64,000 nucleotides of DNA. Origin: an uncultured archaeon. GTDB taxonomy: Archaea > Thermoproteota > Nitrososphaeria > Nitrososphaerales > Gagatemarchaeaceae. The stretch is from positions 224,001 to 288,000 of the forward strand of contig CAWCYD010000002.1 of the NCBI GenBank assembly GCA_963799775.1. Direction: 5' to 3'. The notes below the pieces were generated by a model, which saw nothing but the letters and a program-made list of their open reading frames with translations, was not told the DNA's origin and searched no databases. The position numbers and the translations under genes were made by a program. Below are positions 259-44,988 of the stretch, piece by piece; the stretch's first letter is position 1, and the number at the start of each line of letters is the position of its first letter.

Positions 259-1482
259 CTAGGGAGGAGAGTGACCGGTGCAGTAGAACTTCCTTTGAAC
301 GAGTCCCTTCGAAAAGACGTGCTGGTCGCATAGTCCCTTTCCACAAACAAGGCATGCTTTGCCGTGCTTTTCGCACGCCAGGTCGCCACACTCCTCGCAA
401 ATCCGCTCGGGCGCACGTCCGTCTTCCGGCCTGACGCTGCAACGAGAGAACCCGTCATCAAGAATCTTTCCGGTCGCCGCTTGGATCATTCTTCGGTACC
501 GCTTGTCGCGATAAGAATAGGTCACGAACAAGAGCGGGATTTCTACGAACCTGGCGTAAAGCAAGCCCACGTCGTTCACCCGGGGTCTAACGGTCGCTTG
601 TTGCGAGACAGTTCTTCGATTGCTTCCGTAGCCGTGCGTGGTCTCGTAAGTGTATTGACGGGAGATCCCTTTTGTCAGTTCGATTTGTGCGATTCGCCGG
701 GCGTCGCTCTCGCTTAACTTCGGAGGCGACACGTCGACCCTGGAAAACTTGATGCCCTCAAACGCCAAGGTTTTGGGAACTGTTGTGCTCGCGATGTTAC
801 TACAAACCGCGAGGTGACCGAAGTTAGGCAGGGCAGGGCTTGTTCCCGTTTCGCAGAACGAATCAACGACATCGCCCCGCAGCGCGTCAACCACGACCAA
901 ACCCTTGCTCTCAAGATTCACGAGCTGGAAGTTGACCCGGTCCTGTGTAAAGCAATGGTACCCCAGAAAATAGTAGGGAGCATACGTGAGAACTGTATCC
1001 GAAGGCTGCAGGAGCCTGTGGTTCAACAGGTGCGTAGGTGCGAGGACGGCTCCGAGAGACCTTATCAGAGGGAGGGCATTAGGAATCTCCTCCGAAGAGA
1101 GCTTATCGTGAACCAGCTTGTCTTTCAAGGTCGAGGAATCCCATACCTCCAGCCCCCTCCCTTTGGCGTATTCTAGCGCTGGTATGGTGAATCCTCCTGT
1201 AGATACAAACACGCCTTTTGCATAGCCCAGAGACGATAGCTTGTCGTTGAAGTTCCTGATGTCTTCGATTCCAATAGGCGCAACATGGTTCTTGCACTCC
1301 ACAGCGATTGTGAAGGTTCCAATGGGTTCTTGCCTCCGCCCCAAGACGTCAATTTCGTGTTCGATTCCCAATTTGTCCTTGGGCCTGATTCTTGTCTGGA
1401 CTTCGTAACCCCATCCCCTGAGAAGCCCCGCCACAATATCCTCTAAGGAAGTGCCCTTTGCGACGGCCTCTACCTCGTCCAT
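259..1482 (-). CDS. Mrr-like (type IV) restriction endonuclease domain protein with C-terminal Cys/His zinc fingers
   Basis: N-terminal LE..VA.LL..WGY, EIDV..AVECKN, GVFVSTGGFT..A (Mrr_cat PD-(D/E)xK pattern); C-terminal CEECGDLACEKH..CLVCGKGLCDQH..CTGH. Start placed at MDEVE (ORF track extends to 1584). Confidence 0.8.
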   Translation of the reverse strand: MDEVEAVAKGTSLEDIVAGLLRGWGYEVQTRIRPKDKLGIEHEIDVLGRRQEPIGTFTIAVECKNHVAPIGIEDIRNFNDKLSSLGYAKGVFVSTGGFTIPALEYAKGRGLEVWDSSTLKDKLVHDKLSSEEIPNALPLIRSLGAVLAPTHLLNHRLLQPSDTVLTYAPYYFLGYHCFTQDRVNFQLVNLESKGLVVVDALRGDVVDSFCETGTSPALPNFGHLAVCSNIASTTVPKTLAFEGIKFSRVDVSPPKLSESDARRIAQIELTKGISRQYTYETTHGYGSNRRTVSQQATVRPRVNDVGLLYARFVEIPLLFVTYSYRDKRYRRMIQAATGKILDDGFSRCSVRPEDGRAPERICEECGDLACEKHGKACLVCGKGLCDQHVFSKGLVQRKFYCTGHSPP

Positions 1483-36994: not shown

Positions 36995-37091
36995 GCGGCC
37001 GTGATCCAGTGGTTAGGATTTAGGCTTCCCATTCCTGAAGCCCGAAAGGAGGAGAGAGCCTGACGCCCGGGTTCGAATCCCGGCGGCCGCA
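36995..37091 (+). tRNA. tRNA-Gly(CCC) with 25-nt canonical intron (37032-37056)
   Basis: GCGGCCG TG ATCC AGTGGTTA GGAT T TAGGC TTCCCA[intron]A GCCTG ACGC CCGGG TTCGAAT CCCGG CGGCCGC A. Confidence 0.93.
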
Positions 37092-38532: not shown

Positions 38533-38868
38533 TTATACGCCGGTGGTGGGTCTCAGGCCTATCGTCCCGCCTTTGATCTCGAGCTCGTATACCTCGTTTA
38601 CATCGAGCCTCATCGCGAACATGTCGTACTCGCTCTCGGTGAGGACCATCGTGATCTTCGGGAACGCCAGCTCCCTTACCTGGGGCATCAGGCCCATCCC
38701 CTGGAGCTGTGAGACCATGTTCTGGACCATCCTGTTCTCCTCGCCCCCTATCCCATACACCTGACCTGATACGCGCTGCCTTACCTCCACGAGCTCGATC
38801 TGTTTGGACGGGACGCCCGTGTATGGGTCGGTGACGCTGCTGATGCGATGGACCTTGACTTGCACCAT
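38533..38868 (-). CDS. Arcadin-1-like protein
   Basis: V.V.RI..V.DP..G..SKQIELVE; PKI...LTE.EY......LDVNEVYE. Confidence 0.65.
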   Translation of the reverse strand: MVQVKVHRISSVTDPYTGVPSKQIELVEVRQRVSGQVYGIGGEENRMVQNMVSQLQGMGLMPQVRELAFPKITMVLTESEYDMFAMRLDVNEVYELEIKGGTIGLRPTTGV

Positions 38869-38916: not shown

Positions 38917-39519
38917 TTAGACCGTCTCTTCTCTTTGCTGTTCTTCTAGGTCTTCCTGCTCGTCCTCATCGGCGTCAGCCGCCTCAAAGTCATCCTCCTC
39001 CTCATCGGGAGGCATCGCAGGCTGGTCTCCGGCCGGCGCTGGTATCGGGGCTGGGGCTGGCGCTGACTCCTCCACGGAAGGAACAGAAGGCTCGGTCGGA
39101 GGCTGCTCTTGAGACTGCGAGGCCGGGTACATCTCACTCTCGCGCCTCGCCAGCTCCTCGACGTATTCCGGACTGATCACCCTCGCCATCGAGAGGTTCA
39201 CCAGGCTGTGGTTCGACGCGTCCCCGGTTACCCTTCCCATGGGTCCTCTGAGCTGTCTCCACTTTAGCTTGCTGTTGCCGCTCTTCGATGTGTAGATTAT
39301 CCCTAGCACCTCGTTGGCGTTGACGAACGAGATGTCGCGGATCCTCTTGAGCGTGACCTTGTCCGCCGCCTCGATGTAGATCGACCCCGGCTCGGACTCC
39401 TTCTCTGGGAAGACCTCCGGGTTCCTCAGGTAGGACTCGGGGATGAAACTCCGGCAGGTGCTGTTGACGAGGAACCTCCTGAACGCTTCGAGGTGGCAGT
39501 TGGCGTCGATCTCGACCAT
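38917..39519 (-). CDS. Hypothetical protein with acidic tail
   Basis: 200-aa ORF, globular N-half (NSTCRSFIPESYL..PEVFPE) plus P/D/E tail. Confidence 0.75.
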   Translation of the reverse strand: MVEIDANCHLEAFRRFLVNSTCRSFIPESYLRNPEVFPEKESEPGSIYIEAADKVTLKRIRDISFVNANEVLGIIYTSKSGNSKLKWRQLRGPMGRVTGDASNHSLVNLSMARVISPEYVEELARRESEMYPASQSQEQPPTEPSVPSVEESAPAPAPIPAPAGDQPAMPPDEEEDDFEAADADEDEQEDLEEQQREETV

Positions 39520-39815
39520 GATAACTCCCTACCGGGACTCTCGTGACTCCAAAGGGCTATTATTTGAAGATAGGGTGTTGTAGATTCGGACGCTGGCCAG
39601 TGCTTGGCTCGGTGACATGTCGGCTTGTCTGGGTCAGAATTCGCAAGACTCAAGAAACAGCTATCCCAAGAGTAGCAACGTGGGTAATGATCGCATTTAG
39701 CCTGTTGACCTCACATGAGAAAGATCTTGAGTCGAGAACCCACAAAGATTCGCCTTCCAACACGCTGCTAACGTTAATAAAATGTCATTGTACAGATTCA
39801 ATGGCTGAAGCGCTC

Positions 39816-40093
39816 TGGCAGACCCCTTAGAGCGGTTAGAGGAAAAGATTGAGAGAACGAACTCGCTTCTCATGGCGATTCTTCGGCTCACTCTTGACAA
39901 CCAGCCAAGTATAACTGTAATGCAGAAAATCGAAATTCTAAACAGCGTAGGATTGCGACCGAGCGAAATCGCTAGGATTCTAGGAATCGGTTCAAACCAG
40001 GTGTCGGTCACCCTTGTCAAGATAAGGAAACGAGGCGAACACTCTGCCACGCCGCACAAGTACAAGGAGAAATCAGCAGATTCTACCGGCTGA
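39816..40093 (+). CDS. Small coiled-coil + HTH protein (array paralog 0), probable CTG start
   Basis: LADPLERLEEKIERTNSLLMAILRL...KIEILNSVGLRPSEIARILGIGSNQVSVTL. Confidence 0.75.
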
Positions 40094-40598
40094 CACTCTC
40101 AGCTATCCTGTTTCTGTTTTCATCAGCTCGTCTCAAACAGAGTTCGAGACCATAAGGCAAGAAATCAAGAACGACCTAAAAGACCTGAGGATCGCGGAAC
40201 GACAGGTCTTTTCCCCAACCCTTGTTGAAATGGAACGAGGCGAACAAATCGAGCACGATATTGAAGACGCACTGAAAAAATGTGACATCTATGTTCTTCT
40301 CGTTGGAAACAAGTACTCTGAATGGACCGAAAAGGAGTTCAACATGGCGTGGACTTCTGGTATTCCCATCAAGGCCTATCTAATCAGAAGCAGACAAGTG
40401 CCGAGTAATCGGGAAGCCCAGAGGCAGAGACGGTTTCTCGAACTCGTTCATTCACGAGTGCGCCTCCAAGGGAAGGACAGGCCATATGGCAGGGGGAACC
40501 TCCTCCGCCTGTACAACGATATCGCGAATGACACGGCGGCAATTGTCTTGAAGAGCGTTCATGACCATGTTGCCATCCGACGTATTCTAAGACGCTGA
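40044..40598 (+). CDS. DUF4062 (TIR-like) domain protein
   Basis: Frame is open upstream of the track's ATG: VFISSSQTEFETIRQEI...CDIYVLLVGNKYS..TEKEF..A...GIPI. Confidence 0.8.
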   Translation: MPRRTSTRRNQQILPADTLSYPVSVFISSSQTEFETIRQEIKNDLKDLRIAERQVFSPTLVEMERGEQIEHDIEDALKKCDIYVLLVGNKYSEWTEKEFNMAWTSGIPIKAYLIRSRQVPSNREAQRQRRFLELVHSRVRLQGKDRPYGRGNLLRLYNDIANDTAAIVLKSVHDHVAIRRILRR

Positions 40599-40715
40599 TT
40601 CGCGCATAAAACTGGCAAATTTTCTAGTACTTTCATTACCATATTCTCAACTTGCAGAATAGCGTTCTAGAAAACGCTAAAATCCTTAAATCGTCTTGGG
40701 TGAGTTCAAAGACGC

Positions 40716-40871
40716 ATGGATGAGGAGAAATTCGAGACAATTCGAGACTTGCTCATTATTCTCCTCCTCAAATCGGGCGTGAAACACGAAGCCGTAGCGG
40801 AAGCCACTCATCTCGATCTCAAATATCTCAAGAACAAGTTTCCGCTGAGCAAGATTTCCAGAGAAGATTAG
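40716..40871 (+). CDS. Mini HTH protein, array member 1 (51 aa, not in ORF track)
   Basis: MDEEKFETIRDLLIILLLKSGVKHEAVAEATHLDLKYLKNKFPLSKISRED; TATA-like cttaaa upstream. Confidence 0.75.
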   Translation: MDEEKFETIRDLLIILLLKSGVKHEAVAEATHLDLKYLKNKFPLSKISRED

Positions 40872-40873
40872 TT

Positions 40874-41116
40874 ATGCCAAATGCCGAGCTCGATCCCGTT
40901 TCGAATCGTCTGGACGCCATCACTCGCTTATTAGTCGAGTTTCTCAAACAACAAGAGGAGATGAACGTCGGAGACATAGTGCTGTATTTGCAATCGGCTG
41001 GACTCAGAAGAGTTGAGATAGCGAAAATCCTCGGTGTCAAACATACCTCCATTCCTGGCATCGTCGCGCATGCTAAGAACAAGGAGCTGAAGCAAAAACT
41101 GGAGACCTCGAAATGA
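40874..41116 (+). CDS. Mini HTH protein, array member 2 (80 aa)
   Basis: RLDAITRLLVEFL...YLQSAGLRRVEIAKILGVK. Confidence 0.8.
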   Translation: MPNAELDPVSNRLDAITRLLVEFLKQQEEMNVGDIVLYLQSAGLRRVEIAKILGVKHTSIPGIVAHAKNKELKQKLETSK

Positions 41117-41280
41117 GTGGCGAGACAAAAGAACTGCAAGATATCAAGAGACTCCTCATATTGCTCTTGCAAGCCAACAAGGTCAAGCAACCTGAGATCG
41201 CGAAAGCATTGGGAATCACCGATAGGCAAGTCCGGCGACTGATTAATTCGAGGGAAAGGCCCAATGCCGAAGAAGATTGA
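41113..41280 (+). CDS. Mini HTH protein, array member 3 (55 aa, not in ORF track)
   Basis: MSGETKELQDIKRLLILLLQANKVKQPEIAKALGITDRQVRRLINSRERPNAEED; ATGA overlap. Confidence 0.8.
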   Translation: MSGETKELQDIKRLLILLLQANKVKQPEIAKALGITDRQVRRLINSRERPNAEED

Positions 41281-41488
41281 TTATCCGGAGCAGGAATTGA
41301 AGACAATCCAATTGCTTCTTGCTGGATTACTCCTCAAGGAGGAACCCCGTCCAGATGTTGGAAAGTTGGAGAATCTAATTCACGTTCGCAAGGGCACACT
41401 GTCAGAAATCTTTCCTCAACGAAAAGCCAAGAAGTCAACGAAGTCCTCGGCTCATTCAGCCACCGGAGGTGAATCAAACGCCAAGTGA
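41264..41488 (+). CDS. Mini HTH-like protein, array member 4 (74 aa)
   Basis: ELKTIQLLLAGLLLK...LENLIHVRKGTLSEIFP. Confidence 0.75.
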   Translation: MPKKIDYPEQELKTIQLLLAGLLLKEEPRPDVGKLENLIHVRKGTLSEIFPQRKAKKSTKSSAHSATGGESNAK

Positions 41489-41645
41489 CGAAATCAAGGA
41501 ACTGACTAGCATCAAGAAGTTGCTAATCCTTCAGCTCCTCAGAGACGGTGCCACTTCAGAGGACATAGACAAAGCCACGGGCATGGGTGCGAGCAATATT
41601 CGCGGAATGTTCCCCAAGGTCAAGAAGAAGAGCCTTACCGACTAA
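41469..41645 (+). CDS. Mini HTH protein, array member 5 (58 aa, not in ORF track)
   Basis: MNQTPSDEIKELTSIKKLLILQLLRDGATSEDIDKATGMGASNIRGMFPKVKKKSLTD; TAATG overlap with next gene. Confidence 0.78.
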   Translation: MNQTPSDEIKELTSIKKLLILQLLRDGATSEDIDKATGMGASNIRGMFPKVKKKSLTD

Positions 41646-42538
41646 TGGCAATTCATGTCACTGACGTGCGTTCTAACCCAGAGGACCAGATCGCACACGC
41701 AGCCAAGATACTACAGAAATCTGAACAGGCAAGAAGGCTGTTCCGAGCCATATATCGTGGTAAGACCAAGATCAAGACAATTTCAGCCCTCGTAAAGGCA
41801 ACGGGCTTAAGTGACAAGAGAGTTCTAATCGTCGGAGCCAAACTCGTAGGAAACCGCATCATAGCAGTCAATGACAAAAAGGTCGAGGGACGTATTGCGT
41901 ATGTCAAAGATCCATTCTACAACCAGCATCGCCAAAAGATACTAAGACTGGCTGAGAACCGTATTTCCCTAAAGAAGTACCCTACGAAATACAATGTTCC
42001 ATTCGATTCGGTCCGTGTCGTTCTAGACTTTCAAAGGCAGTCAATTCAGGTGACCAGTATCAGCGTTGACGACATTGACTCTTTCGCTCTTGTCCGGACC
42101 ATCCATGACGCCCCCAAACCAGTCGCAATTTCCGAATTGGCTTTCAAGAATGGGGTGAAGGAAATCTTGGGAGAGCAGGGAGAATTTCAAGACTGGGGAG
42201 GTGAGCAAAACGACCTCTTCACCACACGCCTCTTCATTGGGCGGCGAAGATTAACTGCTGCGTTCGGATTCAAAGGAAAAGGAACAAGCGGGATTCTCAC
42301 CCCCAAGAAAATGGGGAAGAATGGCGACCAAATACAAAGATTGTTCAGATCTACTGCGACTGTTTTCCTCGTTCAATATTGGGGACAAGTAGGCCAAACA
42401 ATTGTCGAACAGATGCATTCCCTCGCGACAGCAAAATCGGCCTTCGGGGGAAGAAGAATCTACTATGGAATAATTGATGGCGCGGACACTCAGAGGCTAG
42501 TTTCGGCCTATGCGGTTAATTTTCGGAACCTAACTTAA
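41645..42538 (+). CDS. wHTH + putative restriction-endonuclease-fold protein
   Basis: N-terminal LF.AIYRGK..IKTISALVKATGLS; C-terminal SE..FK..V..ILGE, DWGGEQNDLFT, AAFGFKG, GKNGDQIQRLF, IIDG.DT.RL. Confidence 0.6.
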   Translation: MAIHVTDVRSNPEDQIAHAAKILQKSEQARRLFRAIYRGKTKIKTISALVKATGLSDKRVLIVGAKLVGNRIIAVNDKKVEGRIAYVKDPFYNQHRQKILRLAENRISLKKYPTKYNVPFDSVRVVLDFQRQSIQVTSISVDDIDSFALVRTIHDAPKPVAISELAFKNGVKEILGEQGEFQDWGGEQNDLFTTRLFIGRRRLTAAFGFKGKGTSGILTPKKMGKNGDQIQRLFRSTATVFLVQYWGQVGQTIVEQMHSLATAKSAFGGRRIYYGIIDGADTQRLVSAYAVNFRNLT

Positions 42539-42614
42539 CGCCTTATTTCCGAAGCGCCGAAGGCGCTTCGGGCGCCAACATATGGATTCTCTCCCGTCCC
42601 CTTTCAATTCCGCT

Positions 42615-44108
42615 TTACACGATGAGCAGGAAGGCCCATATTGGAACGATTACCGCACTACCGTCTTCTTTGAGTTCATTCTTGCTCAACAGTAGTCCTG
42701 GGTTTTTTGACCCTGTTGCTTTGCCGAAGTCGATAAGCCCGTACTTGTCATCGCGGCCAATCGAGTTCTGATATTTCACTTCCACGGGGAAGAAAGTCGA
42801 ACGGTCTTCTTTCATTACGAAGTCCACCTCTCGATCCTTCTTGCTCTTCCAGTAGAACAAGCAAGTCTTGTACTCGAATAGCTGCTTTTGCTTGCTAAGC
42901 AAGAACGAGAGACGCACGAGGTGGTTGGCAACAACCGATTCAAGCAAGCATCCAACATTCCGTTCTTCCTTCAAGTACTCAATCGATGAAGAGAAGGGTT
43001 CAACTCCTTTGCACCAGGCTCTCATTGAATGAAAGAAGAACGGATCGTCGAAGAAGATTTTCTTGTCCTTCTCGTAGGCAGGATTCTTCTGATTCAAATC
43101 GAGCCTATGAAGATACACCATGGCAAAGGTGTCAGTGATGTGTTCGATGTAATCTGCCGCTGTCGCGTGACTCGCAATGTCGGTATCTTTTCGCAGAGTG
43201 TTCCAGCCAACAGGATTTCCCATCGTATCAATAACTCGACTGACGATTTGTCTTACGTATGTCTCGCGCTTCCCCCATCTCTGCAAATCTCCCAAGACCG
43301 AATCGACATAGGTCTTGTAGACGCCTTCGACGATCTGGCCCTTTGTCTTGTACTCGTTTACCACTTTCGGAATTCCTCCCGTAATCAGATATTCCGACAG
43401 CAATAGCTGAAGTTCCTTCGAGTATAGTGCAATTTCCTTCATTTCTTCGATCTTACCTTCGAATAGTCCTTTGAAGATCTGCTTGCGCGTCTCCCAAAAT
43501 AACCGAAAAGGTCCAATCACTTCTTTGGCGAGCTTAGGATTGACGGATTCCACGTATTCGACAAACTTCATGGGTAGCATTATCTTGTCTAAGGAATCGT
43601 TGAGATTACCTCTCCTGCCTGGCAGCCTTTCTGAGTTGGTTTTCACGTCAATTGAATGTGATCCCGTCAACACGACCGTCGCGTTGTCTAGAACTCCCGT
43701 ATCCGCAAGGTGTTTTACGCCCCTTTGCCAGTCCTTGACTGAAGATATCTCGTCTAGGAAAAGATAGGCCCGCTCCTTCTTGTTCCGTATTGTGTCCGAA
43801 TAGTTGGAGACAATGCTAGCCAATTCCTTCGGGTTATCCACCAAATTACATGTGTAGTAGAATACATTCCTTGGATTAGACTCCTTTAGTCGTTCGGAGA
43901 TCATTGTCTTAACCAGCGTGGTTTTACCAACCTGTCGCGGGCCCCTTAGAGTGTAGACCGCATCTTTTTTCCAATCGAAGAAGTGCTTTACTCTCGGCTC
44001 CCATTTTATCGTGCTTTGCTTGAGATTAACAATGTCCTTGTCTGAATCTATAGCTGCTTTGTTTCTCCACCAGGGGTTCTGTCCTGCTAATTCAATTGGA
44101 AAGGACAT
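42615..44108 (-). CDS. AAA+ ATPase with DUF4143-like C-terminus
   Basis: QNPWW, GPRQVGKTT, LFLDEI, LTGS, LPGR, ITGGIP, KKIFF.DP, EVDF, PVEVKY. Confidence 0.92.
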   Translation of the reverse strand: MSFPIELAGQNPWWRNKAAIDSDKDIVNLKQSTIKWEPRVKHFFDWKKDAVYTLRGPRQVGKTTLVKTMISERLKESNPRNVFYYTCNLVDNPKELASIVSNYSDTIRNKKERAYLFLDEISSVKDWQRGVKHLADTGVLDNATVVLTGSHSIDVKTNSERLPGRRGNLNDSLDKIMLPMKFVEYVESVNPKLAKEVIGPFRLFWETRKQIFKGLFEGKIEEMKEIALYSKELQLLLSEYLITGGIPKVVNEYKTKGQIVEGVYKTYVDSVLGDLQRWGKRETYVRQIVSRVIDTMGNPVGWNTLRKDTDIASHATAADYIEHITDTFAMVYLHRLDLNQKNPAYEKDKKIFFDDPFFFHSMRAWCKGVEPFSSSIEYLKEERNVGCLLESVVANHLVRLSFLLSKQKQLFEYKTCLFYWKSKKDREVDFVMKEDRSTFFPVEVKYQNSIGRDDKYGLIDFGKATGSKNPGLLLSKNELKEDGSAVIVPIWAFLLIV

Positions 44109-44421
44109 GCCGTAAGAGTATTTACATCTTATTTATAAATAAGATGTCAGTGCAATTACATCGCGCAATCAAGCTCCGGCAAATAACCACAAATGCTGGA
44201 TTTCGCCCGGGAATCCGAAATTATTCCAATCACACACACAACGTCATAGCCCCAAAAACCTGAATTCAAAATAGAAGTCCTAATACGTCACACGTTAACG
44301 ATGAGTTAACGGTTTATCAAGATCATTTTCAGGCTAATGCGGCCATCACCCACGTTCGGGCCCGCTCCCGGCCGAAGCCAAAAACCTATCTTCAAATGGT
44401 AGCAGTAAGCGATCTGACCGA

Positions 44422-44988
44422 TTGCCCGTGCGTTTCCTTCTTCGTGCGATTCCCAACGACACGGACCGCCAACGCTTCCTCTCGTCCGCAAAGGGCATCG
44501 CCAAGAATCTCGGCGCAAGGGTGACGCACCCAAGATGGACTTCCTATGGTGCCCTCGAGATTGACGTCTTCACTCCTTCGGTGCAGGATTTCGAGCTCTT
44601 CAGCGCGGCCATCGAGCCTCTGGCGAAGCTAGAGTTCACCAAGAACTTGGACGAGGCGCCCCCGTTCAAGGAAAAGGAGCAGACGATCCGAGAGGCGGTC
44701 GGCTACTTCAACTCCGAGAGATACTGGGAGTGCCACGAGGTGCTGGAATCCGTCTGGCGGGCTTCCGAGGGCCAGGAGAGGCTTCTGGTGCAGGCCATCA
44801 TCCTGCTCTGCGCCGCTCAGGTGCATGAGCAGCGAGGAGAGACGGATGTCGCTCTCAACATCTACAGGAGGGCCTTACCCCAACTCGCATGGGAGAAAGA
44901 GCGGTATTACGAGATAGACATCCCACATCTGCGCAGAGACGTGGAACTCGGCCTCAAGAGAGGCGTAGTCGCGCCCCTCCGCATCTAG
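44422..44988 (+). CDS. DUF309 domain protein
   Basis: FN.ERYWECHEVLE.VW; QAII..CAA.VH. Confidence 0.88.
   Translation: MPVRFLLRAIPNDTDRQRFLSSAKGIAKNLGARVTHPRWTSYGALEIDVFTPSVQDFELFSAAIEPLAKLEFTKNLDEAPPFKEKEQTIREAVGYFNSERYWECHEVLESVWRASEGQERLLVQAIILLCAAQVHEQRGETDVALNIYRRALPQLAWEKERYYEIDIPHLRRDVELGLKRGVVAPLRI

Follow-up and report, generated by a model that had tools for sequence, protein, structure and literature searches.

Organization of the cassette

This report concerns a tandem array of five small helix-turn-helix (HTH) genes and the larger gene that directly follows it, located in a 64,000-nucleotide (nt) stretch of DNA from an uncultured archaeon of the Gagatemarchaeaceae (assembly GCA_963799775.1, contig CAWCYD010000002.1, positions 224,001 to 288,000). 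The whole stretch is referred to as the window, and coordinates are positions within it. The small genes are termed mini-HTH genes and the larger one the effector gene; a sixth mini-HTH gene lies upstream of the array. They belong to a wider, apparently undescribed class in which one to five mini-HTH genes, whose subfamilies follow a partly conserved order, precede an exchangeable effector gene. The open reading frames (ORFs) are listed below with the E-values of their best foreign phmmer matches and of a mini-HTH profile in the archaeon's own genome.

39872-40093, + strand: sixth mini-HTH gene, subfamily 'A', 73 amino acids (aa); own-genome profile E 1e-11
40716-40871, + strand: mini-HTH ORF1, 51 aa; best foreign E 1.6e-7; own-genome profile E 2.4e-8
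40874-41116, + strand: mini-HTH ORF2, subfamily 'C', 80 aa; best foreign E 1.3e-8; own-genome profile E 8.9e-11
41113-41280, + strand: mini-HTH ORF3, 55 aa; best foreign E 1.3e-7; match to Pfam HTH_23
41264-41488, + strand: mini-HTH ORF4, the most degenerate paralogue, 74 aa; best foreign E 4.3e-4; own-genome profile E 0.0051
41469-41645, + strand: mini-HTH ORF5, 58 aa, GTG start; best foreign E 3.9e-19 (locus L002)
41645-42538, + strand: effector gene, 297 aa, directly after ORF5

The junctions between these genes are tight. ORF1 and ORF2 are separated by a 2-nt gap ahead of 40874, ORF2 and ORF3 meet in an ATGA at 41113, ORF3/ORF4 and ORF4/ORF5 overlap by 17 nt and 20 nt, respectively, and ORF5 runs into the effector gene through a TAATG at 41645. 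The GTG start of ORF5 sits within the stretch GGAGGTGA. With overlaps of 1-20 nt along the operon, the small genes and the effector gene are adjacent, co-oriented and coupled, which is the gene layout of a type II toxin-antitoxin (TA) module. A preliminary description of the locus had given the same coordinates and overlaps for the five small ORFs and the effector gene, and its remark that the array is not repetitive at the DNA level agrees with a repeat search, which gave just 16-nt matches at 81% identity. The F-P motif that it noted in three of the small ORFs is present in ORFs 1, 4 and 5.

The small ORFs are genes with relatives elsewhere. Each was compared by single-sequence phmmer (E<=0.01) with 9317 ORFs from the window and from 80 related loci, which had been selected from one-genome-per-species contigs for carrying the effector family. 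Counting the query itself, there were 27 matches for ORF1, 29 for ORF2, 39 for ORF3, 4 for ORF4 and 56 for ORF5. When an iterated mini-HTH profile was searched against all 21,844 ORFs of at least 35 aa in the 2.47-Mb assembly, the top five of its 9 matches (E<=0.01) were five of the six mini-HTH ORFs listed above, so that the profile singles out this part of the genome apart from three weaker, unrelated ORFs (E 3.3e-5 to 2.8e-3), which rank ahead of ORF4. Based on these comparisons, the calling of ORFs 1, 2, 3 and 5 as genes appears well supported. ORF4, probably a degenerate paralogue, is the weakest gene call of the array, because its 4 matches include itself and the best foreign one has an E-value of only 4.3e-4.

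A profile of the orthologues of ORF5 that lie next to effector genes has 515 matches among database proteins at E<=1e-5, most of them 53-84 aa long. Many carry a precomputed assignment to PF13384 (HTH_23) or HTH_3, and the few that are named are labelled 'hypothetical', 'XRE-type' or 'ArsR family'. The closest are 75-86% identical to ORF5. That the small ORFs arose as chance frames or are remnants of pseudogenes is very improbable, even though the marginal homology of ORF4 would fit such a view: four of the five have orthologues across phyla, the ORF5 relatives in the database were called independently in many assemblies, and the array junctions are tightly coupled. A search of public sequencing runs gave no RNA run with the locus and one soil-metagenome DNA run with 0.22 of the sampled words.

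The mini-HTH proteins

All six mini-HTH proteins share one pattern, in which a short hydrophobic helix leads into an '..EIAKALG..' helix, and a turn connects this to a third helix; F-P and a basic tail often come after it. A common helix followed by an HTH segment had been recognized in the five ORFs of the array; it aligns over all five and extends to the sixth, at 39872-40093. Alignment, cross-locus searches and subfamily grouping all agree with the suggestion that the small ORFs form one family of paralogues that diverged long ago. ORF2 has a 15-residue insertion following helix 1, and the residues of the recognition helix vary among the paralogues. ORF3 scores above the Pfam HTH_23 cut-off (30.2 bits vs 24.6, E 3.8e-7), while ORFs 1, 2, 4 and 5 fall below it. 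ORF3 also has weak matches to excisionase and transposase HTH models. In the ESM Atlas, the neighbours of ORF5 are clusters of 57-69-aa proteins, the nearest of which have HTH_23 in 19% of their members.

The shared amphipathic helix had been labelled a coiled coil, a structure that would need several heptads and would lie apart from the DNA-binding domain. The helix spans about 12 residues, and residues 10-45 of ORF3 align to positions 4-39 of the HTH_23 profile. Since this match takes in the amphipathic helix, the coiled coil is discarded. Judging from the alignments, the small proteins are minimal tri-helical HTH proteins of the HTH_23-like type, and the common helix corresponds to helix 1.

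Linkage of the arrays to the effector

Mini-HTH arrays are linked to the effector gene in other genomes. A profile built from the six ORFs of the window matches upstream of the effector homologue, on the same strand and within 2.5 kb, in 64 of the 80 loci, with no match in 16 loci, one in 41, two in 18, three in 3 and four in 2. Three rounds of iteration raised the total to 233 matches, from which overlapping frames were then removed, and an array was called effector-linked when it ended between -60 and +200 nt from the effector start. By this measure 65 of the 80 loci have an array directly upstream of the 297-aa homologue, and the recurrence of arrays in other genomes, which had been proposed as a check for this locus, is confirmed. 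These effector-linked arrays consist of one gene in 30 loci, two in 17, three in 13, four in 3 and five in 2, placing the five-gene array of the window at the top of the size range. In a sample of 400 other genomes of the phylum, drawn without bias, there are four strong mini-HTH holders, and all of them have tandem arrays.

The members of an array tend to keep their places. ORF5 is the orthologue of the proximal mini-HTH gene that lies directly upstream of the effector gene in other loci, while subfamily 'A', to which the gene at 39872 belongs, usually takes the distal or first place. Grouped coarsely by the Louvain method, the mini-HTH proteins recur in a similar order, for example as 'C A B' before the effector in loci L025, L054, L059 and L060. 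The identities of the proximal HTH protein and the effector co-vary (Spearman 0.42 over 435 pairs, which are non-independent), and mean pairwise identity is 0.32 for the former vs 0.45 for the latter.

Exchangeable effectors

The gene that follows the array differs among cassettes, as the preliminary description had suggested might be found. HEPN, NYN, Schlafen AlbA_2, CHAT, HigB-like and TIR-like genes all occur downstream of mini-HTH genes. The 80 loci contain 20 further arrays that lie ahead of other genes of at least 100 aa, some of them unnamed. Eight of them are followed by a family of about 170-270 aa, a member of which matches HEPN_Swt1 in locus L066 (3.2e-9), and four by a Hypoth_Ymh HEPN gene (1.8e-16); others precede an NYN gene (2.3e-18) or a Gp49/HigB-like gene (9.5e-13). 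An effector with a winged HTH (wHTH) and a Schlafen AlbA_2 domain (2e-21) is found in two loci. In the four holders among the 400 genomes, the next gene is a member of the 297-aa family in one, a winged helix-CHAT gene in one and another gene in two. Eight metagenome contigs with close relatives of ORF5 were also examined, with genes outside the 297-aa family named by Pfam. The next gene is of the 297-aa family in five of them and AlbA_2 in one, and in another one there are five mini-HTH genes, then a weak HEPN-like gene and a type I S subunit.

Two of these loci are given in more detail. At L106:1694-2707 (+ strand), behind two mini-HTH genes, a 337-aa protein has the winged helix of the 297-aa type (2.6e-34) fused to a CHAT protease (1.9e-8), which replaces the usual C-terminal domain; from its sequence, this is a domain swap upon the same N-terminal module. 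At L123:620-974, on the eighth of the metagenome contigs, a relative of ORF5, 81% identical to that of the window, is followed by a 62-aa remnant of the effector N-terminus, beyond which wHTH-Schlafen AlbA_2 and wHTH-HEPN_Swt1 (1.5e-13) units each lie behind mini-HTH genes of their own. The relatives of ORF5 reach 75-86% identity, those of the effector at most 62%, a gap that hints at recent re-pairing of the two genes.

The sixth mini-HTH gene of the window is itself part of a second mini-HTH and effector unit, since it lies ahead of a TIR-like gene:

40080-40598, + strand: DUF4062/TIR-like gene (DUF4062 9.9e-9, TIR_2 2.5e-6, ThsB_TIR 2.9e-4; PADLOC ThsB 1.4e-4)

This frame is open from 40026, overlapping the end of the mini-HTH gene, and the conserved N-terminal strand precedes its first ATG, GTG or TTG, which is at 40230. 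The gene could have a non-canonical start (ATT at 40080), be a frameshifted fusion or be decaying.

The domains found in the effector position have a common background. NYN, HigB-like, Schlafen AlbA_2, CHAT and TIR-like domains are known from toxin and defence systems. Ymh and HEPN domains are known from such systems as well, according to the available text of PMC3710099. The other recurrent neighbours, besides HTH, HEPN and Ymh genes, are generic ABC ATPases and TPR proteins, and no recurrent neighbour family is present in more than 12 of the 80 loci.

The effector family

The 297-aa protein has no match in Pfam, NCBIfam, PADLOC, PHROGs or the sequences of the PDB, even though it belongs to a large and uniform family. 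There are 1150 database matches at E<=1e-3, and the family counts 1060 representatives at the 50% identity level; most of its proteins are 290-305 aa long and no relative among the 1150 is more than 62% identical to the protein of the window. Over the 80 loci the family is spread, at 40-56% identity, over many phyla, including Bathyarchaeia, Nitrososphaerota, Halobacteria, Thermoplasmata and Woesearchaeota among archaea, and Planctomycetota, Acidobacteriota, Nitrospirota, Actinomycetota, Bacteroidota, Pseudomonadota and others among bacteria. Cultured carriers are Chryseolinea serpens DSM 24574 (L041) and Afipia sp. OHSU_II-C1 (L065). The protein has two domains:

41645-41980, + strand: N-terminal domain, residues 1-112, MarR/ArsR/TubR-like winged helix
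42032-42538, + strand: C-terminal alpha/beta domain, residues 130-297, possible non-canonical restriction-endonuclease-like fold

The AlphaFold model of the effector has a predicted local distance difference test score (pLDDT) of 81, and its N-terminus matches MarR, ArsR and TubR structures, so that the earlier reading of this half as wHTH-like is borne out by the fold search. This winged helix is highly conserved over the family. Because the full-length search matched winged-helix regulators and nothing else, the C-terminal domain was folded separately, giving a pLDDT of 93.3.

In an alignment of 60 diverse relatives, E164, E187, D190, K210, G211, G224 and Q229 are invariant, showing the conservation of the acidic and Lys motifs that had been noted in this half. 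A long, invariant Gly/Lys-rich loop follows K210, while position 208, two residues before it, is Gly or Ala in the family. The order E(helix)...D(strand)...K(strand) and its spacing are compatible with a PD-(D/E)xK core, and the invariance of E164, E187, D190 and K210 suggests catalysis or metal binding. In BFVD the best matches are phage 'Restriction endonuclease' proteins (E 5.8e-3, 3.9e-2 and 5.4e-2; prob 0.96-0.97; TMq 0.37-0.48), followed by an Mrr-domain protein at E 7.8e-2. Among named ESM clusters, Mrr_cat (0.82) and RE_EcoO109I (0.78) are nearest and count as leads alone. From these models, a restriction-endonuclease-like fold is plausible for the C-terminal domain, somewhat more likely than not.

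The C-terminal domain also occurs apart from the winged helix, in hypothetical proteins of two actinobacterial plasmids, pKB1 of Gordonia westfalica (L117:3347-4381) and one of Rhodococcus (L118:3374-4390), where it is 35% identical over 127 residues to that of the effector and follows an unrelated N-terminal region of about 215 aa without a Pfam match. The unannotated phage contig MT837022.1 encodes the domain too. Since the C-terminal domain alone was matched in the plasmid and phage collections, in these 2 plasmids and 1 phage contig, the cassette is not a common plasmid or phage gene there. At L017:875-1792 and L018:6001-6918, on two contigs of one Nitrospirota genome, the same cassette lies at the contig end with its effector broken into ORFs of 242 aa and 59 aa, followed by two mini-HTH genes and, in L017, by a HEPN-like gene; the two may represent a repeated or mobile copy whose effector is disrupted.

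The low-G+C island

The cassette is part of a compositional island that was acquired horizontally:

39520-44421, no strand assigned: low-G+C island of 4.9 kb, G+C 0.45-0.49 vs 0.59 for the genome, between two conserved divergent host genes

From about 0.6, the G+C content drops to 0.45-0.49 over the interval 39.5-44.5 kb. The genome has one copy of the effector gene, which was found in none of the 40 genomes of relatives searched; these include 22 from the same genus, and many of the 40 are incomplete. The island is flanked by a conserved 200-aa gene (38917-39519, - strand), which adjoins an Arcadin_1 gene (38533-38868), and by a DUF309 gene (44422-44988, + strand). In five of seven loci from the same genus, 216-630 bp separate these two flanking genes, so the island represents an insertion of about 4.3-4.7 kb. 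In the remaining two loci the gap is about 1.5 kb in one, and the partner gene lies outside the stretch examined in the other. With gaps from 216 bp to about 1.5 kb in relatives, the site may be a recurrent insertion spot. Imperfect inverted repeats are present at 39556-39580/44379-44403 and at 39677-39697/44336-44356. They were rejected as terminal inverted repeats of the island, the match being about 25 nt at 84% and there being no transposase.

Comparison with known systems

Searches of PADLOC, Pfam and NCBIfam agree with the earlier statement that the locus matches no named system. With PADLOC-DB v2.0.0 the 297-aa protein matches no family, the small ORFs have weak matches to generic HTH models, and the sole component match is a neighbouring ATPase. 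Full-text literature searches gave no description of mini-HTH arrays ahead of exchangeable effectors, though supplementary files may list such neighbourhoods.

HigBA, omega-epsilon-zeta and paaR2-paaA2-parE2 are type II or tripartite TA systems with HTH antitoxins or separate repressors. Like these, the present cassettes have one or more small HTH genes upstream of, and translationally coupled to, a larger toxin-type gene; their distribution is mobile and patchy, and one sister cassette has a Gp49/HigB-like domain. They differ in that up to five diverged HTH paralogues replace the one antitoxin. Their effectors are also large, about 260-340 aa, and those examined (the 297-aa family, AlbA_2 and several HEPN proteins) carry an N-terminal winged helix or HTH of their own. 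In the C protein-restriction endonuclease (REase) pairs of restriction-modification (R-M) systems, a small HTH controller gene lies upstream of the endonuclease gene. The resemblance is close, with a small HTH gene directly upstream of, and overlapping, a nuclease-like gene. However, no methyltransferase domain is found in the genes of the island by Pfam, PADLOC or NCBIfam, nor does one recur in the 80 loci, there are several HTH genes, and in many cases RNases, a protease or TIR-like proteins serve as effectors. CapH/CapP and CapW/BrxR are defence-operon repressors, single and larger regulators with sensor or partner domains. They too are DNA-binding regulators at the head of an operon and keep a defence operon silent until triggered, whereas the regulators here are bare HTH proteins of 50-80 aa, in arrays.

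Mrr and other type IV enzymes share with the effector a winged helix and an alpha/beta domain in which conserved E, D and K follow the same order, and there are weak fold matches. The effector differs from them in having no sequence or profile similarity, in the missing acidic residue of the ExK motif and in the long invariant loop after K210. HEPN abortive infection (Abi) and R-M-linked toxins (Ymh, Swt1-like, Abi2; PMC3710099, in the text available) belong to families that occupy the effector slot in sister cassettes, but the effector of the window is not a HEPN protein. Within that text the terms 'multiple HTH', 'small HTH' and 'HTH protein' are absent; the single use of 'tandem' concerns Parep gene repeats, and that of 'HTH domains' a KorC-like HTH beside NamA. 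None of these nearest kinds has arrays of minimal HTH paralogues before exchangeable effectors that often bear a winged helix.

Interpretation

We consider it somewhat probable that the locus is a horizontally acquired conflict cassette, in which five mini-HTH paralogues are coupled to a winged-helix effector, and that it stands within the wider class described above. From an operon of bare HTH genes, together with sister cassettes whose effector slots hold toxin and immune domains, a toxin or defence cassette is inferred. In uninfected cells the mini-HTH proteins would repress and/or neutralise the effector, in the manner of antitoxins, R-M controllers or defence-operon repressors. Upon invasion, or upon loss of the element, this control would be lost, and the freed effector might then use its winged helix to bind nucleic acid and its C-terminal domain to damage it. 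Toxicity, nuclease activity, repression and a role in defence are what such a scheme predicts of the cassette. Several paralogues would mean several layers or inputs of control. A bolder extension, tentative and in our judgement doubtful, is that the arrays form a general control layer for mobile immune or addiction cassettes, each paralogue reading a cue of its own, and that the C-terminal domain represents a new nuclease or sensor family. The array would then act as a multi-input switch, not as a single repressor, and the cues might be DNA or protein.

Several observations weigh against a conflict cassette of this kind. In 15 of the 80 loci there is no directly adjacent array under the criteria used, and under the same criteria 30 of 115 arrays have no downstream gene of at least 100 aa. 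The iterated profile is derived from its own matches and the ORF starts are those of the longest ORF; the share of other effectors is not a census, since the loci were picked for the 297-aa family. Perfect inverted repeats with arms of at least 7 nt are found upstream of 15 of 113 arrays vs 32 of 254 random segments of the same loci, which is chance level, and the mean best arm is 5.18 upstream of arrays vs 5.05 in mononucleotide shuffles and 5.28 in random segments. The winged helix of the effector is far more conserved than is usual for specificity domains. The description of the C-terminal half as nuclease-like stands in part, in that the BFVD matches allow a restriction-endonuclease-like fold, and they are marginal (E 6e-3 to 8e-2, TM 0.35-0.48). 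For the rest, the C-domain model has no match in the PDB by Foldseek (best E 0.045, prob 0.14) and the domain none by sequence search of the PDB, and hhalign of the effector alignment against ten Mrr_cat domains from the genomes of relatives gives a probability of 0.4%. D190 and K210 of the catalytic D...(D/E)xK motif are invariant, but the acidic residue of (D/E)xK is Ala or Gly; the domain could therefore be inactive or a sensor. The invariant E187 could, from its conservation, stand in for the missing residue.

Some of these points also bear on two other explanations, both of which we think unlikely. The effector could be an Mrr-like type IV modification-dependent restriction enzyme, which needs no methyltransferase, with the mini-HTH genes as plain transcriptional controllers. 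An N-terminal winged helix with a C-terminal REase-like domain is the Mrr architecture, by eye, the conserved E, D and K and the final strand-DG-helix resemble the Mrr_cat alignment in their order and spacing, no methyltransferase recurs beside the effector gene, and a conserved winged helix suits the recognition of modification over that of sequence. However, the Pfam Mrr_cat model (PF04471) has no match to the effector at E<=1, the hhalign probability and the ExK motif speak against it, and the same arrays before RNases, a protease and TIR-like genes would be left unexplained. The incomplete triad would fit the second explanation, in which the cassette is a regulatory module of a mobile element, its effector being a transcription factor with an inactive REase-like sensor of a ligand or nucleotide and its mini-HTH proteins being of the repressor or excisionase type, as the weak matches of ORF3 to excisionase and transposase models would allow. 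The Gly/Lys-rich loop after K210 might bind phosphate or a nucleotide, and inactive REase domains often serve as nucleotide sensors in immune systems (10.1101/2025.10.09.681413, in the part of that source available). Yet genes for integrases, transposases or replication are not among the recurrent neighbours of the cassette, sister cassettes fill the effector position with enzymatic toxin domains above Pfam cut-offs, and E164, E187, D190 and K210 are invariant in 60 diverse sequences. Less likely still, indeed quite improbable, is the mechanism originally put forward, in which the small proteins form hetero-oligomers through a shared coiled-coil helix and, with their differing recognition helices, act as a combinatorial DNA sensor that gates a nuclease. 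Diverged paralogues whose order is partly conserved, as in 'C A B', and whose recognition helices differ, are what it would lead one to expect. Nevertheless, the shared helix is helix 1 of the HTH and not a separate coiled coil, and since 30 of the 65 effector-linked arrays have a single mini-HTH gene, a mixed-paralogue oligomer cannot be required for basic function.

Although large and widespread, the effector family lacks a domain name and a relative of solved structure, and the defence catalogue searched has no entry for it; the linked mini-HTH genes, mostly 53-84 aa long, are easily overlooked by annotation. Should the cassette prove to be a toxin or defence module, it would contribute a new effector domain and a new organisational principle, that of arrays of minimal regulators ahead of exchangeable effector genes, and the arrays would provide a guilt-by-association handle on further effectors. 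Because cultured carriers exist, the idea is directly testable.

Other features of the window

Three further features lie within the island:

40660-40679, no strand assigned: perfect inverted repeat (7+7, 6-nt spacer) located 37 nt before ORF1; candidate operator
42550-42572, + strand: G+C-rich hairpin, 12 nt past the effector stop and preceded by TTATTT; -20.7 kcal/mol, z -2.93
42615-44108, - strand: AAA_14 and DUF4143 ATPase, convergent with the cassette; PADLOC candidate PDC-S01, 5.7e-33

The inverted repeat at 40660-40679 has no other perfect copy within the window. It was dropped as evidence for an operator, inverted repeats not being enriched upstream of arrays. The hairpin likely marks the end of the transcription unit. 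The ATPase gene, which accounts for the PADLOC component match, does not recur beside the cassette in other loci.

Two observations concern the window outside the island. A genuine Mrr_cat domain gene is located at 1120-1455 (- strand, 61.8 bits) in a 454-aa open frame, and is one of three Mrr_cat matches in the genome of this archaeon. At 36995-37091 (+ strand) there is a 97-nt tRNA (Rfam 52.6 bits), reported by ARAGORN as tRNA-??? with a four-letter anticodon, which may contain an intron.

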